A DNA stretch of 63,763 nucleotides, counting the filler, from Rhabdomonas costata (lineage: Eukaryota): assembly GCA_019059605.1 (NCBI GenBank). It is 39 parts of 39 records of this genome, joined end to end, with 100 filler letters (N's around TTAATTAATTAA, not from the genome) between each part and the next. Parts side by side here need not be neighbours in the genome. Positions count along the whole stretch, not along the records: positions 6,552 to 8,087 come from JAHMHO010013515.1; 38 more parts are not named here. One strand, 5' to 3'. The position numbers and the translations under genes were made by a program. The notes beneath the pieces were generated by a model that was not told the origin of the DNA, did no database searches, and saw only the letters and a list, made by a program, of their open reading frames with translations. Of this stretch, positions 3,109 to 59,737 are shown in pieces. Each line of letters begins with the position of its first letter. Positions within the stretch are counted from its first letter, which is position 1.

Positions 3109-4913
3109 CTGCAGGAATGTAGCGGCACACAATAGGGTTCCCATAGCGGCACTTCCACGTGAATTCACCACACAANNNNNNNNNNNNNNNNNNNNNNNNN
3201 NNNNNNNNNNNNNNNNNNNTTAATTAATTAANNNNNNNNNNNNNNNNNNNNNNNNNNNNNNNNNNNNNNNNNNNNGGTTGTTTGTCAAACAGAGAATAGC
3301 GGCGTTAATCCGCAGGGCGAGAAACAGATTAAGGTTAAAGGTTATCGAGCTGGAGCTCACCCTAAAACACGCTCTCTCTTTGCAACCGCGTGGAACCGCA
3401 AGCATTTATTGCTTCTTATGCAGGTTTGCTAGCACTGAGAAACTTCCTTTTCGAGGCTTCGGGAGCCCTTGTGCAGTTGTGGAAACATGTAACCAGACTC
3501 GATCCGCCCTCGATCGATCCGCCACCCCAACTACCTCGTTCCTTCCGTCTTCTTGTCGTTGCAGGCAAATGCCTCGCAGCAAAAAACATCGTCTGGTCAT
3601 GATTCGCCATCAGAGGTAGTCTAAGATGCGCGGAAAATGAAGGCGAGAAGTCGAATAAAAAAGAAGAAGGTGGAGGAGAAGTTTTGGAAAGAGCCGGCGA
3701 GTCAGACAGCTGGGACAGCCTGGTCAACCCTGCTCTCACAGTGGTGTGAGGGTGGTGGTGAGATGGGCTTAGAATTCCAGGGCCAAGGAGCTCTCCAGCT
3801 TCTGCAGGACCCCGTCCAGCTGCCCGGACTCCGCAGAGCGAACTGGAGAGTAGCCGCTGTGCGTGACGCACCAGTTCAATATGGAGGAGCGGGGACGGGA
3901 CAAGGACATGCCCAGCATGGGAATAACAACCACAACATTCACTTTCCTGGACGCCTTTAGGCCTTTAGGCAAATGTTAAGGTATGTACTAATGTCTTACA
4001 TTGATGCATGTGAATTGTTTGAAAGAAAAGTTATCTCACCAAATGCACAATGTATGAGTGTGTGAGAGTGTGCGTGCGTGCGTCAGTGTGTTTCGTAATC
4101 GGCCGTGATCTGAAGGCTCCACTCAGGGAACTGGGCTGCTCGCCCTGTCTGGTGCTTCCGCGATTGCGGCGACTGTGGGAGTCTTGTAGCGCACTTTTCT
4201 GACTGGCAGGGGAAGGGCGCGACCTGGTACACTGGTCCCTGTTTCACCCTGCAGCTTCCACCCTACCGGCAGGCTACAGTTCCCAGGTTACGCATTCTCG
4301 CTCCCATTTTTTGTGGTGGGGAAACAACACAGCGGAAGCAAAGGTTTGCACCGTTGTTGCCGCGACATTGACACACAGGTGCAGTAGAGATAGGGAAAAG
4401 GGGCATGGGAATAGTAGGGCAAGAAAAATGAAGGGCAATGGGGCGAGAAGCATTTGTGGTTAGCACAAGACTTCAGTGGAATGAGGAAAATGAGGGGGCG
4501 GAAAGAGTTTGGGAGTTCCGTTACGGGTACTTCTTCCCTGAAATGGCAGTATGAGTGAGTGTGCATGGGATGTGGGAGTGTCCCATCTGCTTGTTTCTTT
4601 GGCCCTGGGGGAGGGTTCGCCAACTAGTGATAGTCCGATGACCCCCCGTGAACTGCTTAGATCCAGAATGCAAATATTTTGTGTTCCCGAACATGGACGC
4701 TTTGGAGAAGGGCGTCGGATGTTGCACTCCCTGAACATTGCTACTTGATAAAGGTCTGCTTGCGTGCCATTTCTCTTACACCGCTACGAGCTGAACCCCA
4801 AAAAACCCACCACNNNNNNNNNNNNNNNNNNNNNNNNNNNNNNNNNNNNNNNNNNNNTTAATTAATTAANNNNNNNNNNNNNNNNNNNNNNNNNNNNNNN
4901 NNNNNNNNNNNNN

Positions 4914-5211
4914 GAAAGGAAGAGGAGAAGAGGAAGGGAAAAGGAAGAAAGGAGAAAAAGAGAAAAAGGGAAAAGGAAGGGGAAAGGGGGGAAAGGGGGG
5001 GAAAAGAAAAAGGGAGAAAAAGGGGAGAAAAAGGGGGAGAGAGAAAAGGAAGAAAAGAGAAAGAGGGAGGGGGAAGAGGGGAAAAAGGGGAAGAGGAGGG
5101 GGGAAAGAGGGGAGGAGGGGAGAGGAAGGGAAAAAAGGAGAGAGGGAGGGAAAAAAGAGAAGAGGGGAGAAGAAGAAAGAAAAGGAGGGAAAGGAAAGGG
5201 AGGGGGGAAAA
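4914..5211. repeat. ~300-nt pure polypurine (G/A-only) low-complexity tract
   Basis: No C or T on the + strand over this interval; it lies at a contig start. Confidence 0.9.
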
Positions 5212-5673
5212 GAAACAGTGTATCTGAGTCGACAAATAAGTGCCAACACGCAGCCGAGTTTACCAGCGGGGCAATTATGCAAAAGCGTAAAAAAAACAAA
5301 TACATCGTCATTCTTAAAAATAGCATTAACTGGCTAGCATAACTGCATAAACTGAATGAATATTTGCATTCCGGTCCTCACCTTTGAGCAGTGTGCTATA
5401 CCCTTTACAAGGTACCACAAGCACCACCGAAATCTTTTGACTGGATGAAGCACGAGACTTTCTGTGGAAGGGAGTGGGGCTAAACGCTGCGGGGGGACCC
5501 AAAGCCGAAGGCAATGCAGTATTCACAGTCAGTTCGGCACGGACAGCACCCATCACATCACAGGACGTGACATGCACCAAGAGAGCGAGAGAGAGAATTG
5601 GTCAAGCGCCCTTGCTCGTCTAGAAGTTCATTACAGCATCAGCGCATATCGGGGGGAGATTTAAAAATCAGAA

Positions 5674-6093: not shown

Positions 6094-6849
6094 CTTTGGA
6101 CAAAATAAACGCCATCGTCGCAACGGCAGAATTACTCCCAACACACAGACACACACAGACACACGCACACAAACACACAAACACACACACACACACACAC
6201 GAAAAAAGCGATCGAGCGTCTGCAGCTCAGGGGCGCCCTGCCCTAGCCTCTCAAAGTTTTCTGGGGTGAAGTGAGGGAGGGAGGGGGGTGACACTTTTAA
6301 ATGAGAACATTTGCCATGGTAGCAATTTCCCTATTGGACCATTCGAAAAGTCATCAAGGGCCCAAGGTCACGTTTCCGCACCAGTCGCGCGAGAGGGAGG
6401 CTGCGACGCTCGCCTTCCCCTAACAATGCTGTCTCACTCGTCCACCCAAAANNNNNNNNNNNNNNNNNNNNNNNNNNNNNNNNNNNNNNNNNNNNTTAAT
6501 TAATTAANNNNNNNNNNNNNNNNNNNNNNNNNNNNNNNNNNNNNNNNNNNNGGGGGGTTTGGAAATGCCGTCTCAGACCGAGGTCTGAGAGAGCGGTGCC
6601 AGATATCAGGAGACGGGAAATAGCCGTTCCTGAGCCGCCTGCGCAGCGAGATTCGACCGAAAGCGTTGGAGAAGAGGTCGAGGAGCTTCGAAGGTTGCGA
6701 GCAGTGTTGAGAGAACGACATAGAGTTGGCGAAGAATGGTATGACGAGTGGCTAAAGCGGGCTAGAGCAGCTTAGGAGGAGTTGACGGGCCGGGGAAGTC
6801 CAGAAGCTCCCCGGTTAGGTGCTATGCAATAGAAGACGCTTATGTAGAG

Positions 6850-7344
6850 GTGGTGCTAAGAAGGCTTCCTGGAGAGCACTCTGAGCCGGTGTTCAGTCCG
6901 GAAGAAGAGGTGAAGTTAGACCCTCGTGTTTTTGGAGAGGCATGTCACAGGCTGTTGGTATCACCGTGCATGGACTTGTTTGCTTCCAAGAGGCATAACC
7001 AGTTGCCGAGGTATTTTGCGGCAGAGGAGTGGGAAGAGGCAGCGCTAGGCTGTAACGCATTTGCGTATGAGTGGAGTCCAGAGGTTTGATTGTACGCAAA
7101 TCCTCCGTGGAGTTTAATCCCATTGGTGTTGATGAAGAGTTGCAGATACAAAGCGCGAGTGTTGCTAGTTACGCTAAACTGGAAGGAAGCACATTGGTTT
7201 CATCTGTTGGAAGAAATTACAGTGCGGAGGTGGTTGAGAGGAGGTAAGCTTTATTTTTCAGAGAAGGGGGAGCTGATACCACCGCCAAGGTGGCCGACAT
7301 TTTTTTCGTACGTGGTTGGAAAAAAAGTTGAGCGGGTGGTGTAA
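6850..7344 (+). pseudogene. DIRS/Dam-like DNA N6-adenine methyltransferase ORF with one in-frame TGA (7087-7089)
   Basis: EEVKLDP..F..ACHRL..SPCMDLFASKRHNQLPRYF..NAFAYEWSPEV*LYANPPWSLIPLVLMK..ARVLLVTLNWKEAHWF. It has the DLFAS motif and the catalytic NPPW motif in the arrangement typical of retroelement-borne N6A-MTases. Confidence 0.88.
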
Positions 7345-7781
7345 CAAGAGGATGTAAATGGAGCTTGGGGAAGTTTGGATTGAGAAGTTACGGAGCCAGA
7401 GAGTGTGGATGTGCAGCAGAAGGATATTCAGAGTTGATCCAGAGAGGTGGTGGCGGAGCAGTCGATACCATTTCTTTCTTGAGAGGAGTAGAGATCATTT
7501 CTTTGTTGTCTCTTTTTCAGGAGTTTCTGTAGCAGAGTATACCCAAAGGAGTTCTTCATCTCAGAGGAGGCTTTATGCGGTGGAGGTTTGAGTATTGTGG
7601 ACGTGGGGAGGAGAGAGCGTGGTGTCGTAGGTCTTGTGTCAGTGTGTGAGTGCTGATCAAGTGTTCTGACTAACTACTCAAGCTTTGAGTCGAAACATGA
7701 GGAAAATGTCCGCGTCCAACGCATGTGAATTTTCTCCTTCCTCTCGTGATTGGGAGCAGCTGGGTGATATGGACCGTTACA
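7340..7781 (+). mobile_element. Putative 3' LTR (442 bp) of an LTR retroelement
   Basis: Starts TGTAAC (7340) and ends GTTACA (7781), a perfect 6-bp terminal inverted repeat with TG...CA termini. It is immediately preceded by a purine-rich PPT-like tract (GGAAAAAAAGTTGAGCGGGTGG) and followed by (GT)n-rich host-like sequence. Confidence 0.65.
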
Positions 7782-8606
7782 GTGTATGTGTCCGTGCGTG
7801 TGTGTGTGTTTATGTGAGCAAGGCGCGCAACCTTACCCCAATTACCTTCCTGTCGTCAATCACGAACAACAGCACATTGAACGCGCCAAAAAAGCCACAG
7901 GTTTGCGTCACGTCATGGATCACGATGGTGTGATAATAGAGATAAAAGTCGTGTAAGTGTGGATAGAAAAGAGTGGGAAGGTTTGGAACAGTCCAGAAGA
8001 GAAAAAAGAGACAACATCATGAGGGAGATGGAAAAGGGGAGAGGGTAAAAGAGAGGAAATGTAATCCGAGAAGAAAAGCTAAGGATGNNNNNNNNNNNNN
8101 NNNNNNNNNNNNNNNNNNNNNNNNNNNNNNNTTAATTAATTAANNNNNNNNNNNNNNNNNNNNNNNNNNNNNNNNNNNNNNNNNNNNGTTGGTTTTTCAT
8201 GTCGAACCCCACCTGAAAAGGACACTTTGCAACCAGGTGGGGTTCGACATGAAACAACGATAAAGGGGCATCAGGCTGGTTTGGATCGTGGCCGCACGGT
8301 CCGCTTTCGATTCCCAGCCCCAGCCGGTTCCCGTCGTCCGCTGGTGCGAAAACTCATGGGTTTGGGCAGGGCACGACGGAGCTACGGAGCAGCCCCCGCG
8401 ATCCCGTGCAAAGCAGGGTCCGTAACATCTGGTGGCAGACTGGTTCGGGTCCTGCGCCCTGTGTCTCCCTGACGGTGTCCGCGTGCAGCCCCCGCCCCAG
8501 GATGCATCGCGGGGGTATGGCAAACCCATCTCTCCGCCAAAAGAGCTGTAACTGCGGGTGCACGTATGTTCACCGTATATTCCACAGCTATTGGGCATCC
8601 GCGCCT

Positions 8607-8780
8607 TTAAATTCAAATCCCTGCTTTTCCTTGCATTGATTAAGCCAATTGTTCGTCTCTTGCATTGGAGGCTCTTGAGGCTACTACGACTTAAATTCAA
8701 ATCCCTGCTTTTCCTTGCATTGATTAAGCCAATTGTTCGTCTCTTGCATTGGAGGCCCTTGAGGCTACTTACGCCTTAAA
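8607..8780. repeat. Tandem duplication, 84-bp unit x2
   Basis: TTAAATTCAAATCCCTGCTTTTCCTTGCATTG... begins at 8607 and again at 8691, near-identical. Confidence 0.9.
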
Positions 8781-10430
8781 ATCAAGTCGAGCAAACGAGA
8801 ACCACTTGCGACTAGTTGTGCCAGTAAACTCTCAGTTGGTTCTGTTTTGCCGCAACCAAAAGACCATTCATGCTCGCACTGTCAATAATTCCAAACTCGG
8901 AACCTTTCTCGATGATCGATTGATTTGTTCGCGAAAAAATGTGACTCAGCATTATTGTATTTTTGAAAAGGACAACATTGCTATCAAGGGTATCCTGGCA
9001 CAAAATTGCCATTTGGCTTTATCAGACTCGAAACAGAATTTCCGCAAAGATGAACGTCTTTCCTTGCTAGGCATGCAAGGGGAGATGAAAACCTGCACAA
9101 GGCACAGCGACACGCGACAAAAAAGTCGAGTGGCTAAGGGCTACAAGAGACGGCCAGACAGCAGGCAGCAGGGGGTGCTGCTGCCCACCACCCACACTTC
9201 GCCGCCCCGCCTTCCCTTTCCGAACACACTTGGAATTATAATACAGGTGAAATAAGTACAGCACTATCCACAGTAAACAAAGCACAAAGGGAAACTCTAA
9301 CTAACGGGGAGAACGCAGCCCATCAGCTCTGTCAGAGCAACCGGCAACAACGACACAACGGGCGTGTGTGCGCGGAGTGTGCCAACGGCTGCTTTTTGTT
9401 TTCGGTATGCTGGATATGAGAAGTGTTTTGCTAACGGCGCACCGCTGTGCGTGCACGCTCGTGTACGACCCACACAGCGGCGCATGGGAGCAAAGCGTGG
9501 AAACGAGAGACGACTTGGCAACAGGCAGAGTATGCCCTACACCAAGCCAATTCAGGGAAAGGAGACCAAAGAGGAAACACGAAAGTGAGCGTGCGTCCGT
9601 GTGTGTGACCTTAACGGGGGCGGGGGGGATTGCAAATCGATCCTCGCAGAGATGGAACCCAAAAGCTGCAAAGCGCCTCAGCACCCCCATCCCTCCCTCA
9701 CCCCATGGGATGCGCCCAAAACCCNNNNNNNNNNNNNNNNNNNNNNNNNNNNNNNNNNNNNNNNNNNNTTAATTAATTAANNNNNNNNNNNNNNNNNNNN
9801 NNNNNNNNNNNNNNNNNNNNNNNNGGGGTTGGTTTAACATAAAATATGGCCTCACGTTACGTTTATTTATTTTCGACATCCAATCAAAAATGCGAGAAAT
9901 CATAACCCAAAAAATAGTGAACAGTATGCAAAACTAATCACAGTTCAGCAATGACCATTCACCATTTTTCCTTTTTCATGGCGCGAGTGAAAAAATGGCA
10001 ATTGTCGCGATACTGCACCCCCCCCCACCACCAGGAGTCACGATACTGCACAAGAGGACAGGTGTGTATGCCCGAATCCCAATACCCAATCGTGGGATGG
10101 GAACACAATGACGTTGTGGACGCTGTGCTCACGCCTCAATCAGGAAGGCAGAGTGAACCATTAAGTTCGCTCACTTCCGGAAGTGAGCTTTCCCAACATC
10201 CAATCAAAAAAATGTGAAGCTGCAATGGGATGAATTCCCATTTTGCTAATTTCCATTCCATCTCTTGTTAGGGGTCCAAAATGAAACAACACATCATAAG
10301 ATAATTCGCCCAAAATTACGGGGTAATTCAGTTCTTCATTTTTTCAAAGACGTCGGGAAATTTCGGTTTTGGAGTCCCCAATGCATCCCCGGACCCCAGG
10401 GGTGCAAAATGAAAGAACATTCGAAGAAAC

Positions 10431-12992: not shown

Positions 12993-13265
12993 ACCCCCCN
13001 NNNNNNNNNNNNNNNNNNNNNNNNNNNNNNNNNNNNNNNNNNNTTAATTAATTAANNNNNNNNNNNNNNNNNNNNNNNNNNNNNNNNNNNNNNNNNNNNG
13101 GGTGTTGGCATCGCGACACAGCAGGCCGATCTATTTTCGTTTTCAGTTCCCGGCCCTGTGGCTGTTCAAACCATACATCAGATGCACAGACTTTCGGTCT
13201 TCGCCGCGTTTTTCGTTTGAAGTCACCATGCCACATGGAACGGGGCAATGCACTTCTCACCTTTG

Positions 13266-13337
13266 GGGGCATACGATGATGTTCAAGGAGAACAGTCTGA
13301 GGCAGTGAATGCAAGCTTTGCTGAGTACCTGTGCCCC
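13266..13337 (+). ncRNA. Box C/D snoRNA candidate (copy 1)
   Basis: Box C ATGATG 13276-13281, D' CTGA 13297-13300, C'-like GTGAATG 13305-13311, D CTGA 13321-13324. K-turn stem TAC/GTA with a GAT bulge; outer stem GGGGCATA/TGTGCCCC. Confidence 0.72.
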
Positions 13338-13917
13338 TCCTTTGGAGCAGTTTTGGGATATCGTGGGCTATGGTGGGTTTGCCTTTCTTTTTGCATTGCG
13401 TTTTGTTTTCACACGCAACCTTTTCTTTGAGGCAGTTCTTCCCCACTTCACTCCAGTGCATCGAGGTTGCCGAGGGTAGCATTAGGTGCTCCCATGGTAT
13501 TTTCTGCCATTATACCGTTGGGTGAAGGGAAGGGGAAGGTTTTTGTTCCGACGTGTGAAAGTACTGCACCTTTGTCGTGCTGGCCTGCTTCATGGGGTGC
13601 AGAGAACTTGGCAGCCCGCAGCCGCAATGTTTTGCCCGCCTCCGGCAGGCTTGGGCCGTGCCTTGCCGGAATAGGCCTGGGCTGGAATGTTATCTTCAGC
13701 TAGAAGGTGCATCTTTTGTATTCATCAATGGTGAGTCGGGGGACCTAGGAGGGGTGTTGACATCGCGACACAGCAGGCCGATCTATTTTCGTTTTCAGTT
13801 CCCGGCCCTGTGGCTGTTCAAACCATACATCAGATGCACAGACTTTCGGTCTTCGCCGCGTTTTTCGTTTGAAGTCACCATGCCACATGGAACGGGGCAA
13901 TGCACTTCTCACCTTTG

Positions 13918-13989
13918 GGGGCATACGATGATGTTCAAGGAGAACAGTCTGAGGCAGTGAATGCAAGCTTTGCTGAGTACCTGTGCCCC
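13918..13989 (+). ncRNA. Box C/D snoRNA candidate (copy 2; a third copy at ~14569 is truncated)
   Basis: Identical to copy 1, 652 nt downstream. Confidence 0.72.
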
Positions 13990-15174
13990 TCCTTTGGAGC
14001 AGTTTTGGGATATCGTGGGCTATGGTGGGTTTGCCTTTCTTTTTGCATTGCGTTTTGTTTTCACACGCAACCTTTTCTTTGAGGCAGTTCTTCCCCACTT
14101 CACTCCAGTGCATCGAGGTTGCCGAGGGTAGCATTAGGTGCTCCCATGGTATTTTCTGCCATTAGACCGTTGGGTGATGGGAAGGGGAAGGTTTTTTTCC
14201 GACGTGTGAAAGTACTGCACCTTTGTCGTGCTGGCCTGCTTCATGGGGTGCAGAGAACCTGGCAGCCCGCAGCCGCAATGTTTTGCCCGCCTCCGGCAGG
14301 CTTGGGCCGTGCCTTGCCGGAATAGGCCTGGGCTGGAATGTTATCTTCAACTAGAAGGTGCATCTTTTGTATTCATCAATGGTGAGTCGGGGGACCTAGG
14401 AGGGGTGTTGACCTCTCGGCACAGCAGGCCGATCTATTTTCGTTTTCAGTTCCCGGCCCTGTGGCTGTTCAAACCATACGTCAGATGCACAGACTTTCGG
14501 TCTTCGCCGCGTTTTTCGTTTGAAGTCACAATGCCACATGGAACGGGGCAATGCACTTCTCACCTTTGGGGGCATACGATGATGTTCAAGGAGAGAAGTG
14601 CATTGCCCCGTTCCATGTGGCATAGTGACCCCAAACAANNNNNNNNNNNNNNNNNNNNNNNNNNNNNNNNNNNNNNNNNNNNTTAATTAATTAANNNNNN
14701 NNNNNNNNNNNNNNNNNNNNNNNNNNNNNNNNNNNNNNGTTTTTTTGGATCGGCGAGCATGGCATTTGGCTGATTCAAAGAAAGTGTTGCGTAGGCAACC
14801 GCGAACGCGCGCCAGACATTCTATGTGCGGGAGGGGGGGGGAAAGGCTGTAATCTTACGGGTTTCAGATGCTGTCTCTATTTTGACCTGCTGCCCCTTCA
14901 TGTCGGTGGCTGTGCCTCCCTGGGTTGTGGTGGAAGCGGTGCTGCCGATAATGCTGAGTAACGCAAAGGTGGGCGCTGCAGTGTGGGAAGTGCAAGAACG
15001 TATGCAGATGCTGGGACTTGTATGCGATGGCCGATACCTTTGCAAAGTGGGCTATAAAAACCTTACATCGACATACTCGTCCACATGGGATGGACGCGCC
15101 AGTCATACCATCCAAGACCCACGACCAACACCCACGGAGAAGGATGAGTTTGCAGTTGGAAGGTGCGCGCACAC

Positions 15175-22507: not shown

Positions 22508-24638
22508 CTGACCCACGCGCGCATTGTTACCAACCCCAATCCCCTTCCGACATTGCCACAGGGTATGACATGCACAAGCGCACTTAGAGCGTCGCAGTTC
22601 GCAGGACTGCGCGTGTAGTATGTTGGAGAACCCACCACACCACAAATTGCACTCCCATCTCCACTGCTAAGGTTTTTCTTTCAGTCGTTGGCAACCCGTA
22701 CATGACTAGAGATGACTGCCTTTATGTGTTCACAAGAATCCCATCTTCAACTGGAAAGGAACAATTTAATTCACTATCCGGAACAATGCGTCAGTCGATA
22801 GAAAAAATAGAGGGGGAAAGGAAAGAACNNNNNNNNNNNNNNNNNNNNNNNNNNNNNNNNNNNNNNNNNNNNTTAATTAATTAANNNNNNNNNNNNNNNN
22901 NNNNNNNNNNNNNNNNNNNNNNNNNNNNGGTTTTTGGGGAATAGTAGGCTTCATGCTGGCTCTCAACCCGTAGAGCTTCCTGTTCGCACCGTATTGGGAG
23001 CCAGCATGAAGCCTACTATTCTCCAAAGAAACACAGATGGGGCCTTTGTAGGTTCGCGCAAGGCTTGGGTGGAAAGCACTGTGCACGCCTCCTGCCTCAA
23101 TTCCACCCGACGTTGCCAATTTTGATCCTCGCAGGCACCAGGGTGCGATGCAATATTTTTTCCGGATTCCCCGTTGGTTTCTGGGCTGCAGGGCTCGTTC
23201 AGCGTGTTGGTTTGACGGTCTTTTCTGAGTTTAGATCAAAAAGTGCGGTCTTGAGGTCTTAATGTTGTTTCCAAAGTGCTGGACGATTTCTTTATGCTGA
23301 CTGCAGAGTTGGCCTACTTTGCTGTGTTTCGGATTACTTTCTGCAAGTTGCGTCTGCCGTGACCACTGCGTAACATTCCCACGAAAACCGTGACCGATTT
23401 GTTTTAAGCGACAATATGTTACGAATACAAGTGTGGTACCAATCTGACTTGATCTTGGTTTTGGAGCCTCTGCCGTGCTTCGATGCCACTTTTGAGCCGT
23501 TGCTGATGAAATTGAAATGACAGGGGAGCCTTTCATAGCTCTGATGCCATAGAGTTACCACCCCCCCCCTTTTTTTTTTTGCGAAAAAGCAATGAATACG
23601 CGTCGTGCTCCCCTGCAAACTATGAGTTGCCTTGATTGAAGTCACAGGAAGACAAAAAGCACATCAGCCCGCATGTAAGGAGGGGTTGTTTTGGTCTGGA
23701 CCGCAGTGGAATTTTCAGACAAGGTAACGTACACCCAAGGTGTTGTCCAACATGTGTTATGATTATACGATGTAACATGTTCTAGGTTTGGTTATAGAAC
23801 GGTCCTGAACTTTTTTGAAGGTTTTTGAAGTTTAGAGTGGAGCTGCGTGCAAAGCTTCCCCTCCCTTCTCTCAGCCTTCCCAGCAGCTTCCGGAACCCTC
23901 AGGCCGCGGCGCCGTTCCAGGGCAAGGGTGCAGGAGGCGTCCACTCCTGTGCACTCCCACCAGCAGTACATGCTTAGCTTGACCACGGTCCTCATCGGTA
24001 TGTGCATGTGGACGTGGGGGGTTGCATGTGGCTCATCGCGCGGCGCAAGCTTACCGTTTATTGCCAGAACGCACTATGCGCGAGTCCCGCGCGAGTGTTT
24101 TTTTTGAAATGTGCTCTAAAAGAGGATTTTCCTTACACGCGATATTTCTTGGTTAAAGTCTGGTGCGAAAATTCTTCCAAAAAATTCTGTTGAACAGCGT
24201 GTTGGTTTAATGTATGCACGCAACAGACCTGCTCACAACCCCCTCCTGTCGTCTCCTAACCCCCTGAAAATGCCGCTCCGAAAAGGCGACATCATGACAT
24301 GCTTGTCTCGTGTGATGCGGACATCACGGCTGAGTTTTCAAGTTCAGTTCGTAGACTTCAGTACGACTTTTTGGACGCAGTTTAAATTTGCCGTGGAGGT
24401 TCCGTGGCCGGCATTTGCAGAATTATCGCATCAGCCTTAACTCTCACTTTTAGCAAAACCACCNNNNNNNNNNNNNNNNNNNNNNNNNNNNNNNNNNNNN
24501 NNNNNNNTTAATTAATTAANNNNNNNNNNNNNNNNNNNNNNNNNNNNNNNNNNNNNNNNNNNNCCTATTCCTGTCGGCATTCACTACGTCAATCCAAGAA
24601 GCAACCTGTCCACAGCCGCGACGGATGTTGTTGCGCAG

Positions 24639-25886
24639 GTGAAGATCTGTGATTTGGGTCTGGCCCGGTGCGAGGTCGTGGGTGACCCCACCCGGTGCGT
24701 CGTCACGGAGGGCTACCGCGCTCCGGAGGTAATTGTGGAGGCGGAGTACTCCTCCAAGATCGACGTCTGGGCGGCGGGGTGCGTGCTGGCGCAGCTTCTC
24801 AACCGCCGCCCTCGCGAGGGCGGGTTTTGGTACCTTCCACTGTTCCCCGGCCCCTCCGACATGTTCGAGATGTTTGCCGAGATTCTCAGATTCATCGGTT
24901 TGGGCAGACAAAACAGCCCCCCACCCCACACACACACACACCACGAGAGAAGGCCCTAGGATCCCAAAGGAGGAGTGGGCAGTGCGGGTAGTGGTTGGAA
25001 AGGAGCAGCTGCGCGGCAAATGCTTGGGACCCGTGGGGCTGAAGGGAGGTTACCATATGTGGAACGTTCGTTGGGGTGAGCCGGTACCCCACGGCACCGT
25101 TCGCTCCAACGGTACCTTAGCAAGCACCCGTGTCTGTGGCCAACAGTGTGTGGCCCGTGAGTCCACAGTAAGCATCAACAGTCAATCAGGCAAGGGCCTG
25201 TGCTATGCGCCCAACACAAACACGCACACACACACACCGCGTCTTTGTCTTTTTCGGCGCCTTGCCTTGTGGAAAAAGCGCATTATTTTATATGTTCATT
25301 TTCTTTTCATATTTTCTTCGTGGTTCATGTGAACAATGAACTGCTACCCTCTCAGTCATCTACCAAACGCCTGGCAACAGATCCTGAGCCAGTATTTTTG
25401 GATGGCCGGCCTCAACCACTTTTTGGTGCGTTCGACCTAGGCGAGCGACCAGAGGTCGACTAGAGGATCTTTTCTTGGTTGGCAAACCCAGTGGTCAGAG
25501 TGCTTCCTTAACTTTTTTTGTGCTGCTGGGGGTACCAAGGCACACCCACCCCAGAAGAGCTGCAGGACTGCCCGGCGCAGTTGCAGGACGCTGTGACGCA
25601 CTTTCCGAACTTTCCCCATCCGAACATGCGCACGCGTCTGGTTTGCCCCGACGGCAACCCAGTGCCTCCTGAGGCGGCAGAGCTTGTGCTGGCTATGCTG
25701 AGGTTTGACCCCACGAGGAGGGTCACGGTCGACGAAGCCATGGCTCACCCCTTCCTGGACGAAGTCCACGACGAAGAGTGTCTGGTACAGGGTTTTGTTT
25801 CGCAAGCAAGACGTTCCATTCTTTTTGTCGATCAAGAATACCTCAGGCGAGTTGCCAACCACGTCAAAAAAAACAAGCACCCGTGA
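24639..25886 (+). CDS. CMGC/MAPK-like protein kinase, C-terminal half (exons 24639-24897, 25540-25886)
   Basis: [85 protein letters not shown]. This covers kinase subdomains VII-XI with MAPK-type features. Confidence 0.93.
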
Positions 25887-26223: not shown

Positions 26224-26263
26224 GTGAGTGAGTGAGTGAGTGAGTGAGTGAGTGAGTGAGTGA

Positions 26264-26301
<38 letters not shown>
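26224..26301. repeat. Compound microsatellite (GTGA)n(GT)n
   Basis: Directly visible simple repeat. Confidence 0.95.
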
Positions 26302-26304
<3 letters not shown>

Positions 26305-26842
26305 CACTATCCCCCACGGCCCTTTAAAACGCGCCTCCAAAAGCCCCAAAGACTTCATGGTTCCAACCTGGGACACATTACCATATACAGGCGCCCCAAA
26401 ACATTGGTCAGGAGTTGGGACAGTGAATTCGGAGGGACAAGAGTGAAGAAAACAAACGAACAGAACACCGAGCAACTCAATACAGTGGACTTCTTGAGTT
26501 CTTTGTTTAGATGGGTGACGCACCTCAGTCTGTCATGCAAAACCCCCCTGGCGGGTGCCAGTCCGAGTCGGACGAGGGTTAGGGTTAGGGAGCAAGTGGA
26601 GAAAGAAAAAAGAGGCGGTTCCATCTACAAAGCCCTTGAGTTGCACCCTGGCAACTAGCACCGGAATGAAGCCCACAACAAAGGCGGGAAAAGAGAGAGT
26701 ATAGGGGACATAAGACAATTGACTGACGACGTCCCCCCCAACACTTGTTTTCACTTGCACGCGTGCGTTTCAGTGGAAACTCGAGAGTAACCACCACTAT
26801 AAAGAGAGAGAGAGAAATAGCGAGCGGGGGACGAGAGCACAC

Positions 26843-34990: not shown

Positions 34991-35830
34991 TCCGAGGCTT
35001 CGTTCAGGGCGTTCAGCAGGGTATGCACAGTCTGTGGCTTGAACTCTGCCAGGTCGTTGCTGCTGGTGGCGCCCCGAAGGCCCCCGGCTCCGCTGTTCTC
35101 GCGGATCTCGCACAGCGAGGCAACTGCAAGTATATAAAGACATAGAACCGTACCGCAAAGGGCAGAAAAAGAAAAGTAAGAAAGATGAGAGATGAGAAAA
35201 ACGGAAGAAGAGCGGAGCGTGATGACTTGGATCCTGCCGCCACACCACAGCTCCAACCGACTTAGTGACGCCCCCGACATACAAATCTCCACATTGCTAT
35301 TTCTTTTTTATTTGCATCATCTTGTCATACAGCACCCAACAATGAAGCATCATACCCGCGTTGGAAACGACCGTAGGGTTGGAGTCGCAAAGTAGCTCCT
35401 GGAGCATGTCAAGGAAGCCCCCCTCCTCTGCCTTCAACTTGTTGATCGTGAACATCTTAGCCACAGCAATGGCCGCTGTTTTGCGGACATACGGGTCAGA
35501 GTCCTGTAAAACACAGTCAAGTTAAAACCACTCAGTTGAAGGTGAGTTGGCTTTTTGTAAAGGTTTGCTGCCCAGAACGACCGTCGCATGGAGAAAATAA
35601 AGGGGAGGTTGTCCAAGCAAATTGCTCTCCAACAGTACCCGCAGAGCCTTCCTGAGAGGGTCGGCAAGGTAATCCGCCATTTTCTCGACATTGATTGCAG
35701 ACATTGTACGTATGGCCAACCCTCGAATCAAAGGGGACTCATTTTGGCTATCCCTGACGAAAGCGCCCGCCAGCAGAACGGCCTTCTCTGGCTGGGACTT
35801 GGCGTTGTTCATGATGTACAGGTACACGAG
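34991..35830 (-). CDS. AP-1/AP-2 complex beta subunit (beta-adaptin), N-terminal trunk (exons 35830-35639, 35503-35356, 35123-34991)
   Basis: [89 protein letters not shown]. Confidence 0.95.
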
Positions 35831-36511
35831 CTGTCCAAAGGGAAGAGGGAAGTTTTAGAAGAGAGTATTCAACTGCATTCATCGTCTAAAGTCACTGTAA
35901 AGAACATAACTGTCGCTATTTTTTTTGGTAAATCNNNNNNNNNNNNNNNNNNNNNNNNNNNNNNNNNNNNNNNNNNNNTTAATTAATTAANNNNNNNNNN
36001 NNNNNNNNNNNNNNNNNNNNNNNNNNNNNNNNNNTGTTGGTTGGTGTGGCGCAGACACTTGCTAAAAAAATGCCAGTAATTGGGATTGACCTCATCACCG
36101 GGTCCTTTGTCACGGGTAGCCGACGTCACTACCTTTCCTGTGGATGCTCAATTGTAAGGATATCGATATGCTGGAATGGATGGGCTAATGCAGCTGCCCC
36201 TGCAGCTGCTTCTGCATTCACCACACTGTTGCTGTACTTTCTTTGGGCTGCCTTGACCCCTTTCGGTATGGTGCAGCAATATGGGGGACAGGCAGCATGA
36301 ACTCCTGGAGGAAGTCCGAATTCGGGACCAGATGCAAGATGCAGGTGCGTAGATGTGTGGCTGAAATCCTTGCGCAAAAAAAAAGGAAGCGCTTTTATAC
36401 GATCGGTTAAAATCACCCGCTGGTTAGAAGACACACCCTCGCTCCAGCCAGAGCGCCTTCACGGCACACAAACACACGCCCACAGCGACTTCTTTGGATG
36501 CACGCACGCAC

Positions 36512-38620: not shown

Positions 38621-39395
38621 AGCAATTGTCACGGAGCTGCAAGTACCAAGTCGAGAGAGAATGATGAATGAGAGATAGCTAGAGATAAATGATGAGTAAC
38701 TTCACGAGTGGCGGAAAGAGAGAAATGGTGCATGTGGTGTGTGTGTGTGTGTGTGTGTGTGCGTGTGTGTGTGTGTCTGCTGAAAATCACAGAGGCCCAA
38801 TGAAGGGCACCACAAGACACAACAAAGGAAGGGAAAATGAACAGTATTTCTTCTGACGGCTTTCTGGACATGTGATTGAGGGATGAACCTTCGGCCTCGG
38901 ATTCGTAATACAACAGGAAAAAGTAGTTTTCCACCCACCCACTCGGTTGTGGAAATCTGGGAGCACAGCGGCACAGGGTCAAAGAGATCCAAGCATACGT
39001 CATTCGGCGGGGAAGAAGCTTGGGATCTAAGTGAGAGACGCACTCCAAAAGGCACGCACTCCTTGTGTACCCTCTGGCCAACCTCTACTCAGGCAGCAAG
39101 GTAAACATTTTCAGGACCAGACGAAGACGAGTGGTACTTCGCGCACCGCTTGATGGACCGAAGCAGGAATATTGGTGAAGAGAGACATCCAATGTGCATT
39201 CACCACCACACANNNNNNNNNNNNNNNNNNNNNNNNNNNNNNNNNNNNNNNNNNNNTTAATTAATTAANNNNNNNNNNNNNNNNNNNNNNNNNNNNNNNN
39301 NNNNNNNNNNNNGGGTGGGGGGAGTGAAGAACCCCTCATGCATTCTCTACACGTGTCTCTTCACTCACTCCACCCCCATAAGAGGCTTACGGGCA

Positions 39396-52748: not shown

Positions 52749-53943
52749 GTGGGCCTCAAATCCGCTTCTCCAGCGGCCGACGCCTCCGTCGTGGTGGGCA
52801 CCGCCAGGGCGCGCGAGGTGTGGCCGCAGAAGTGGCTGCTGCGAACCCCCCAGCAGATGCCCATGGGCGTGAACTGGATGTCCTTCGTGCCAGACTCCCG
52901 GCCGCTGTCCTCGCTGTCGATCCCCGGTACCCATGACACGATGGCCGTGGTGGACCTGTCCTTTGTGAGCATTGCGCAGTGCCAGGAAAGGCTGCTCCTG
53001 GAGCAGCTGGAGAGAGGGATTCGGTACGTCGACATCCGGTGCCGGCACTACCATGACCGGTGTGGCTCCTACGCCCGTCTCTTTCGCACAGCATAAGGGG
53101 CGATTGCTGTACGTTGGAGTGTATTGAGCAATGGCCCTGAACCGTCCGCTTCTTGGGGAAGGTGTGTCGCCGTGCAGAGTTTGCCAAACTGGACTGCTGC
53201 GGCTTCGATAACAGTGCCCGTCGTTCTGGATGCATTCTTTGATTTGGTCAGTATTCCTCAGCGCAGTGCTGTGATTTTGTGAGTTTTCCACCTTGCCCAC
53301 GAGTGCACCTACTCCGAACGAAATGAGAACCAAGGCTGTTCAGGGCCAGCTTGACAAGGCAACGGTGTGCCCTTACTGGAAATTGTCCTCGGGGACTCCC
53401 TGGGCGGCCTTGTCCTCCTCGCAGTCAGAGTCAACTCATCCCAAATCCCCGCCCCGATGTTATTGGAGCACCGAGCCTCGAGGCCTCGTAAAGGATAACA
53501 GGCGGACGCCGACACCGAGCATACGCACGCAGTCAAGATGGCATCACGCAAGTTTTTTCTGGCACTCAAATGGATTCATACTTTGTGCTTGAACAGGTTC
53601 CCAATTTATCATGGGAAGGTCTCCCAGAACAGCGACTTCTCCGACGTACTGCAATTCCTGATGGGTTTTCTGCACGAGAATTCCCGGGAGACCGTCATCG
53701 TCAGCGTTTGCCCGGAGTACGAGGCGAAGGGCAACACCCGGGATTTCGACGAGACCTTCCTGTGGTACCTGGACCACTACCAGTGCCGCGACCAGTGGTA
53801 CCTCAGCAGCGCCACCCCCACGCTGGGCGAGGTGCGGGGGAAGATGGTGCTGGCGCAGCGCTTCGACTCCACTCGGGTGCAGGGGATCAAGCTGCAGAAT
53901 CAGGAGTGGCTGGACGAGTGGGAGTGCAACACCGAGGCTGATC
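52749..53943 (+). CDS. Phosphatidylinositol-specific phospholipase C, bacterial-like PLC-X domain (exons 52749-53059, 53597->53943)
   Basis: NWMSFVPDSRPLSSLSIPGTHDT..QCQ..LLEQLERGIRYVDIRCR..|FPIYHG..FLHENSRETVIVSV..PTLGEVRGKMVL; both catalytic His are present. Confidence 0.95.

Positions 53944-58982: not shown

Positions 58983-59737
<755 letters not shown>

Follow-up and report, generated by a model that had tools for sequence, protein, structure and literature searches.

The locus

The window, by which we mean the whole stretch of Rhabdomonas costata DNA that was analyzed (assembly GCA_019059605.1), is 63,763 bases long and consists of 39 pieces of 1535 to 1547 bp each, joined by 100-nt linkers (44 N, TTAATTAATTAA, 44 N). 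As it is a chain of near-equal contig pieces, adjacent pieces are not genomic neighbors. Our subject is the piece at positions 6552 to 8087, which carries a reading frame for a Dam-like domain, that is, one resembling DNA N6-adenine methyltransferases (MTases); all statements on what lies upstream or downstream of this frame are confined to that piece. We consider it likely that the piece is the 3′ end of a lightly decayed Ty3/gypsy-type long terminal repeat (LTR) retrotransposon of the kind called DAM-LTR. Its features are as follows.

6552–8087, no strand assigned: contig piece with the Dam-like frame, 1536 bp, bounded on both sides by the linkers (N, TTAATTAATTAA, N)
6554–6772, plus strand: open frame 3 from the contig start, 73 codons, rich in Arg and Glu, ending at the TAG at 6773–6775
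6775–7341, plus strand: Dam-like (PF05869/TIGR01712-type) N6-adenine-MTase-like domain, family profile independent E value (iE) 4.6e-98
6973–6987, plus strand: D-L-F-A-S motif, placed by alignments, with DLFA at 6973–6984
7087–7089, plus strand: in-frame TGA that breaks the Dam-like domain, directly before LYANPPW
7099–7110, plus strand: N-P-P-W motif, all four residues invariant in both family alignments
7318–7339, plus strand: candidate polypurine tract, 18 of 22 purines, including GGAAAAAAAG at 7318–7327
7340–7781, plus strand: putative 3′ LTR or noncoding tail, TGTAAC...GTTACA
7342–7344, plus strand: TAA stop of the Pol frame
7782–7818, plus strand: GT-rich microsatellite-like stretch adjoining the proposed LTR end

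A first-pass annotation of this DNA had reported a Dam-like frame whose stop codon lies inside the hexamer TGTAAC, and that frame is real: from 6766 on, the plus strand reads ...MDLFAS...LYANPPW... and ends at the TAA within TGTAAC (7340–7345). A domain-only profile matches 6835–7335 (iE 4.7e-79). The D, L, and A of the D-L-F-A-S motif are invariant across the phage Dam methylase, relatives of the DIRS type, and relatives linked to an integrase (IN), and the N-P-P of the second motif, which is the catalytic-pocket triplet of N6-adenine MTases (bioRxiv 10.64898/2026.05.21.726589), is invariant against phage Dam as well. Most relatives that retain the SYVVG motif near the end of the domain stop about 1 to 20 residues past it.

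The copy in the window is damaged. The TGA stands in a column that holds Cys in 9 of 13 aligned relatives, and on its 5′ side the domain frame meets a TAG at 6763–6765 and four further stops back to the contig start; neither the TGA nor the upstream stops appear in the first-pass annotation. In the alignment A2, which represents the window's clade, 43 columns reach 90% conservation or more among the other 15 rows; the window copy retains 39 of them, which is within the range of those rows (0.88 to 1.0). The copy has therefore suffered only light decay, or else its stops are errors of assembly.

Over the stretch where the domain frame has its five upstream stops, the frame at 6554–6772 stays open. 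To judge by its sequence, this frame could encode the linker that precedes the Dam-like domain in Pol, shifted by one base relative to the domain frame: when its final residues (..WLKRARAA) are read on into SSLGGVDG of the domain frame, the result looks, by eye, like LARSRIASSGGSDG in the relative P0002, a likeness that would place a 1-nt frameshift near 6766. As a Pol linker, the frame gave a BLASTP E value of 7.1, no family-profile match, and no Pfam match.

Homology of the domain to Dam methylases

In a set of 5.8 billion proteins, the best relative of the window protein is 59% identical to it (E 1.6e-56), a likeness that chance does not explain, and the 10 short relatives range from E 1.6e-56 to 9e-34. 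Among named families, the PF05869 Dam model matches at E 0.016 and 15.3 bits, short of its curated cut-off of 28.1, with no other Pfam family matching at E up to 10; TIGR01712 (phage_N6A_met) matches at E 3.3e-4 and 20.2 bits, short of its cut-off of 97.05, with no other NCBIfam family matching at E up to 0.1. Two points here weigh against our reading: these direct scores lie far below the curated cut-offs, and a tblastn search of 50,697 phage records with the window protein returned nothing significant (best E 0.7).

The connection to Dam runs through intermediates. The A2 profile (181 positions) finds 21 longer proteins, either linked to a reverse transcriptase (RT) or simply long, with E values from 5e-23 to 4e-6. 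RVT_1 is present in 16 of them; PF05869 matches 10 at E up to 0.01, and 4 score above its cut-off (P0166, 28.4 bits; P0171, 28.6; P0172, 35.4; P0182, 57.9). P0182 also matches annotated phage “Dam methylase” genes (E 4e-7). We aligned nine rows, namely, the phage enzyme QGJ86764.1 (Enterobacter phage ATCEA85, MN656993.1), four RT-linked or long relatives, two IN-linked relatives, P0002, and the window protein, and found D-L-x-A, W, N-P-P, and W invariant throughout. The core of phage Dam (PF05869/TIGR01712) that aligns with the window domain comprises D-L-x-A, (D/N)-A-F..W, N-P-P-(Y/F/W), and a V/L-x-P...W-F strand, at an overall identity to QGJ86764.1 of 13 to 19% for every row but P0182 (33%); the window protein stands at 17%.

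On sequence grounds, then, we take the frame to be Dam-like: weakly so by direct match, but with a clear link through intermediates that pass the cut-off and with both the D-L-x-A and the N-P-P-(aromatic) motifs in place. By the same comparison, the domain is homologous to the MTase (MT) domain of DIRS elements, which has the same D-L-x-A and N-P-P and is what A2 finds at E 5e-23 to 4e-6, and, through DIRS, to phage Dam methylases. A search of solved structures with the domain profile gave no MTase (best match DUF4827, E 0.0035), the ESM Atlas gave eukaryotic clusters only, one of them with PF05869 on 11% of its members, and bacterial and archaeal genome contigs gave 0 loci.

Integrase-linked relatives

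What kind of element did the domain belong to? In a single-protein query with 1077 candidates, all three relatives of 337 to 2000 aa have the domain at the C terminus, after the Ty3/gypsy integrase domain SH3_Tf2-1; P0012 and P0013 also carry rve, and P0012 has the H2C2 zinc domain as well. The match of P0012 to the window protein covers its residues 686–868 of 875 (BLASTP, 96/183 identical, 52%, E 6e-61) and so stops 7 residues short of the P0012 C terminus. The three IN-linked proteins also lead the search with the domain-only profile, at E 1e-71 to 2e-40 versus 5e-23 to 4e-6 for 21 others, and the integrase part of a joint profile matches the solved Ty3 integrase 7q5b (E 4.7e-37). In six more proteins, Pfam and our own domain hidden Markov model (HMM) find an integrase or SH3 domain followed by the Dam-like domain, which brings the IN-linked total to nine, with IN, SH3_Tf2-1, and the Dam-like domain in one open reading frame (ORF). 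One of these six, P0019, is a single ORF of 1124 residues that runs RVT_1, RT_RNaseH, Integrase_H2C2, rve, SH3_Tf2-1, and then the Dam-like domain. None of the nine has a chromodomain or a DNA methyltransferase of the DNMT kind.

The first-pass annotation had proposed an integrase-type, gypsy-like element or a nonautonomous LTR element, and the relatives support the gypsy-like reading: the nearest ones with other domains have a Ty3/gypsy DDE integrase and not a tyrosine recombinase (YR). It had also described the MTase as a 3′-terminal ORF; in the relatives, it is instead the C-terminal domain of Pol.

Why, then, is no integrase seen at the locus itself? The stretch between SH3 and the Dam-like domain measures 0 to 282 residues in the IN-linked relatives, and 222 and 282 in the clade members P0012 and P0013; with only 74 codons of contig upstream, an integrase would stay out of sight on this piece even in a copy that has one. 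The earlier observation that no RNase H or integrase is recognizable in the roughly 300 nt upstream is accurate as far as it goes, but it reflects only the contig end, which lies 223 nt before the domain. The remainder of Pol (integrase, RNase H, and RT) would have lain upstream of the contig start.

Several points count against this assignment. The contig reaches one end of the element only and has no integrase, RT, gag, LTR pair, primer binding site, or target site duplication, and the assignment to an LTR element therefore rests wholly on relatives. In P0012 and P0013, rve scores below the Pfam cut-off (29.7 and 27.0 bits versus 32.6). The sampling was biased, since the profile A1 with which the representative library was searched (727 positions) contained the integrase and so favored IN-linked proteins; its 68,935 hits were mostly ordinary gypsy integrases, and the Pfam scan covered 26 of the 150 proteins listed (those in which the profile matched at least two stretches or reached into the Dam part) plus 3 more. 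Lastly, the 15 short relatives without another domain provide no element context.

Two further proteins, P0103 and P0133, show a different domain placement, with a PF05869 Dam match at the N terminus, ahead of protease, RT, RNase H, and integrase. Both were missed by the HMM of the window's clade.

Domain phylogeny and alternative readings

The domain has a classical home elsewhere, and the piece could be the 3′ part of a DIRS-type tyrosine-recombinase retroelement with a Pol of RT-RNaseH-MT, the downstream sequence then being a terminal repeat, an internal complementary region, or the start of the YR. In the portion of the source available to us, DIRS elements are described with a PF05869-type MT after RNase H in Pol, a tyrosine recombinase, and inverted terminal repeats (PMC3783388). 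Twenty-one of the 24 long relatives from the domain profile lack an integrase (16 of these 21 carry RVT_1), mixed DIRS/LTR clades are reported in Euglena gracilis (bioRxiv 10.64898/2026.05.21.726589), and the upstream sequence on the contig holds nothing that speaks against DIRS.

Against this stands the domain tree. We inferred a maximum-likelihood tree of 46 domains, which are all those found by the domain HMM among 183 stored proteins, and a branch with 98/93 support splits it into 25 rows and 21 rows. On the 25-row side are the window, the 9 IN-linked domains, and 15 domains from short proteins that have no other domain; on the 21-row side are 16 RT/RNaseH-linked domains and 5 from long proteins in which Pfam finds nothing else. 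Within its side, the window belongs to a 13-row clade (100/99) together with P0012, P0013, and 10 short proteins, and the clade members with any context, P0012 and P0013, are all IN-linked. Forcing the window to the other side costs 20.6 log-likelihood units and is rejected by the approximately unbiased test (p 0.00345), although the grouping was defined after inspection of the tree, which tells against the force of that result. The separation from DIRS that the first-pass annotation supposed is thus upheld by the phylogeny, in which the window copy lies with the IN-linked side and off RT-RNaseH-Dam.

Other observations agree with the tree. The window protein shares 28 to 40% identity with DIRS-type relatives versus 46 to 59% with the IN-linked group; its nearest relatives have a DDE integrase upstream in place of RT-RNaseH; neither a YR nor any other coding signal is found in the 743 nt past the stop, and no YR is seen on the contig piece as a whole, the upstream part of the element lying off the contig. 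We regard a DIRS origin as unlikely. The domain groups with the domains of integrase-bearing LTR-type Pol proteins, as in a DAM-LTR.

A second alternative is that the frame no longer belongs to a mobile element, being an orphan remnant or a Dam-like gene captured by the host, or that so short a contig is a chimera of the assembly. On the 25-row side of the tree, the short proteins just mentioned make up 15 rows, 46.1% of eukaryotic DAM proteins lack features of transposable elements (bioRxiv 10.64898/2026.05.21.726589), the contig is 1.5 kb long, and the frame is broken. However, the same preprint reads such orphans as remnants of transposable elements; P0004, a 90%-identity cluster of 155 member sequences, suggests a repeated element; the short relatives sit on contigs of 671 to 1374 bp, so that their missing context is uninformative; and the in-frame stops speak against a working host gene. 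We judge this alternative to be distinctly unlikely. Highly improbable, in our estimate, is a third, in which TGA 7087–7089 is read as Cys (as in NCBI table 10) and the domain is intact in the host: the TGA falls exactly at the Cys column and the copy is otherwise well kept, but both Cys codons are one base from TGA, so that a nonsense mutation is an expected route, the case hangs on one codon, nothing else in the window points to a variant code, and TAG stops interrupt the frame further upstream as well.

The 3′ tail

If the piece is the end of a Ty3/gypsy-type element, the element's 3′ noncoding region likely begins at about 7340, and the sequence from there on would be the 3′ LTR, primed from the purine tract at 7318–7339. 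The first-pass annotation had gone further and delimited a 442-bp LTR of the TG...CA type behind a purine-rich tract. Its observations stand: the tract lies ahead of TGTAAC, GTTACA is present at 7776–7781, and 442 bp run from one hexamer to the other. The LTR itself is putative: the hexamer pair is within chance, and there is no second copy in the window. When the downstream sequence was replaced by a first-order Markov sequence in 2000 runs, the fixed hexamer TGTAAC found a partner by chance in 9.65% of simulations, which weakens our reading of the tail, and any TG-hexamer starting within 30 nt upstream did so in 36%. Searches for a second copy gave only (GT)n/(CA)n microsatellite matches (blastn of the piece against the whole window) and only this locus (tblastn of four relatives against the window). 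Also unfavorable is a perfect 14-nt inverted repeat, TGTTGTCTCTTTTT at 7504–7517 and AAAAAGAGACAACA at 8003–8016, that straddles the proposed end at 7781; its arms are 485 nt apart, both in compositionally biased sequence, and only short inverted repeats were seen on the contig piece. The composition profile has no sharp change at 7781. The GT-rich stretch that follows, at 7782–7818, may be host flank, as other pieces often carry (GT)n/(CA)n runs of this sort.

How unusual is the purine tract? Windows of 22 nt with at least 18 purines number 20 of 1209 within 6552–7781 (the top 1.7%) and 74 of 1515 on the whole piece, and the piece has 13 purine runs of 9 nt or longer, GGAAAAAAAG among them. 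The tract overlaps the last codons (GKKVERV) and is thus coding sequence. We speculate that the final conserved codons of Pol may also serve as the polypurine tract.

The domain ends in a conserved stretch (..SYVVGK, then K/R) that is shared with the relatives P0002 to P0013 and that in the window copy (7311–7344) is encoded by GGAAAAAAAG.

Beyond the stop, the 743 nt hold 13 small ORFs with no coding signal (best match Kelch_6, E 0.11), and family profiles run against all six frames of the piece found nothing besides the Dam-like domain; that the tail from about 7340 on is noncoding is thus clear. On the minus strand, residues 667–729 of P0012 match 7777–7571 (E 0.001, or 4e-5 without composition correction); we take this match as chance because no other relative shows it and the family profile there has an iE of 0.54 and a negative score.

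Known elements and a possible mechanism

The element kind is already known: a preprint of May 2026 describes DAM-LTRs, and the novelty implied by the first-pass annotation falls away. The preprint reports the first DAM domains in non-DIRS LTR elements among 10,030 eukaryotic DAM proteins, infers that DAM moved at least four times from DIRS into Ty3/Gypsy-like elements, and names as EpiLTRs those that combine a chromodomain, DAM, and DNMT (bioRxiv 10.64898/2026.05.21.726589). We found no earlier literature report of Dam domains in non-DIRS LTR elements besides this preprint; a 2019 review, in the portion of its text available, places DAM in DIRS only and the cytosine methylases, DCM, in Ty3/Gypsy and DIRS (PMC6338049).

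The likeness to DAM-LTRs is close: a eukaryotic DIRS-derived Dam-like domain lies inside a Ty3/gypsy-type Pol, N-P-P is kept, many copies are orphan or degenerate, and the preprint reports a group from E. gracilis, in keeping with the euglenozoan host that the first-pass annotation supposed. The difference is that in the window's relatives the domain closes Pol behind the integrase, separated from it by up to 282 linker residues, and chromodomain and DNMT are both missing; in this those relatives are unlike the chromovirus-like, EpiLTR, and DAM-between-IN-and-RT forms of the preprint. On the contig piece, within its visible part, no DNMT or Chromo match was found, so the element does not show itself to be an EpiLTR. 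The retrotransposons that have captured C5 DNMTs resemble it in that a DNA methyltransferase is appended to a retrotransposon Pol, as described in the portion of the source available (PMC5890265), but the enzyme family and the DNA mark differ, and the window contig has no DNMT signal.

In intact copies of a Ty3/gypsy-type element of this kind, we posit that the domain would bind S-adenosyl-methionine and methylate adenine at N6. The targets could be the element's own cDNA, the RNA:DNA intermediate, or the new insertion, and such methylation would put the copy in chromatin that is marked by N6-methyladenine (6mA) and transcriptionally permissive. This mechanism is extrapolated from sequence, and catalytic activity is putative across the whole class. 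In eukaryotic DAMs, the N-P-P pocket is conserved and the N-terminal catalytic and recognition parts of prokaryotic DAMs are missing (bioRxiv 10.64898/2026.05.21.726589). The first-pass annotation spoke of a “6mA writer,” a term that does not fit the window copy, which, with its in-frame TGA, is unable to write 6mA. Two reports in the preprint also weigh against the picture drawn here: DAMs expressed in dam-deficient Escherichia coli gave no rise in 6mA, and the E. gracilis group, which mixes DAM-LTR and DIRS, may owe that mix to nested insertions or assembly artifacts (bioRxiv 10.64898/2026.05.21.726589).

A more specific proposal can be made, and we put it forward as doubtful. Could the window's clade stem from yet another independent event, in which a Ty3/gypsy lineage that is not chromoviral and lies outside the five DAM-LTR lineages of the preprint captured the DIRS-derived Dam-like domain? 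Pol in this clade would have an acidic linker of 222 to 282 residues between the integrase and the terminal domain, and its last codons (..VVGK K/R..) would be the polypurine tract; the domain would act in the replication complex on RNA:DNA or nascent cDNA, and insertions would arrive already marked with 6mA.

A retrotransposon that brings along a DNA-adenine methylase of its own could direct the chromatin state that its new insertions take on, and a working enzyme would tie a phage-derived domain to eukaryotic 6mA biology. The locus described here adds one decayed fragment, without context, to an element kind that has already been described.

Other features of the window

In a Pfam scan of the window's ORFs of at least 110 codons, 5 of 122 gave short, exon-sized matches, namely, Pkinase (24564–24956, plus strand), Adaptin_N (35525–35854, minus strand), PI-PLC-X (53499–53942, plus strand), and Cys_Met_Meta_PP (59330–59737, minus strand), together with a sub-threshold cNMP_binding. 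Each of the four named with coordinates spans about 60 to 90 residues of the family model. The scan took 122 of 127 ORFs, the 5 omitted all lying in a GA-rich low-complexity stretch at 4913–5377. This pattern suggests host genes split by introns and fits an intron-bearing eukaryote. Rfam gave 0 matches, both over the whole window and on piece 6552–8087, and the tRNA scan gave 0 genes.

The GA-rich region (4914–5377) has imperfect 36- and 47-bp repeats and long spurious ORFs in several frames, and an 84-bp tandem repeat at 8607–8785 has 2.1 copies with 95% matches. Microsatellites of the (CA)n/(GT)n and (GTGA)n types occur on several pieces (6140–6200, 7782–7818, 26224–26306, and 38721–38787). 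The ORFs of piece 13100–14638 have no Pfam match, and the piece has no Rfam match; it is entirely tandem satellite with a period of about 651 to 652 bp, its copies being 96 to 100% identical (families D3 and D4).

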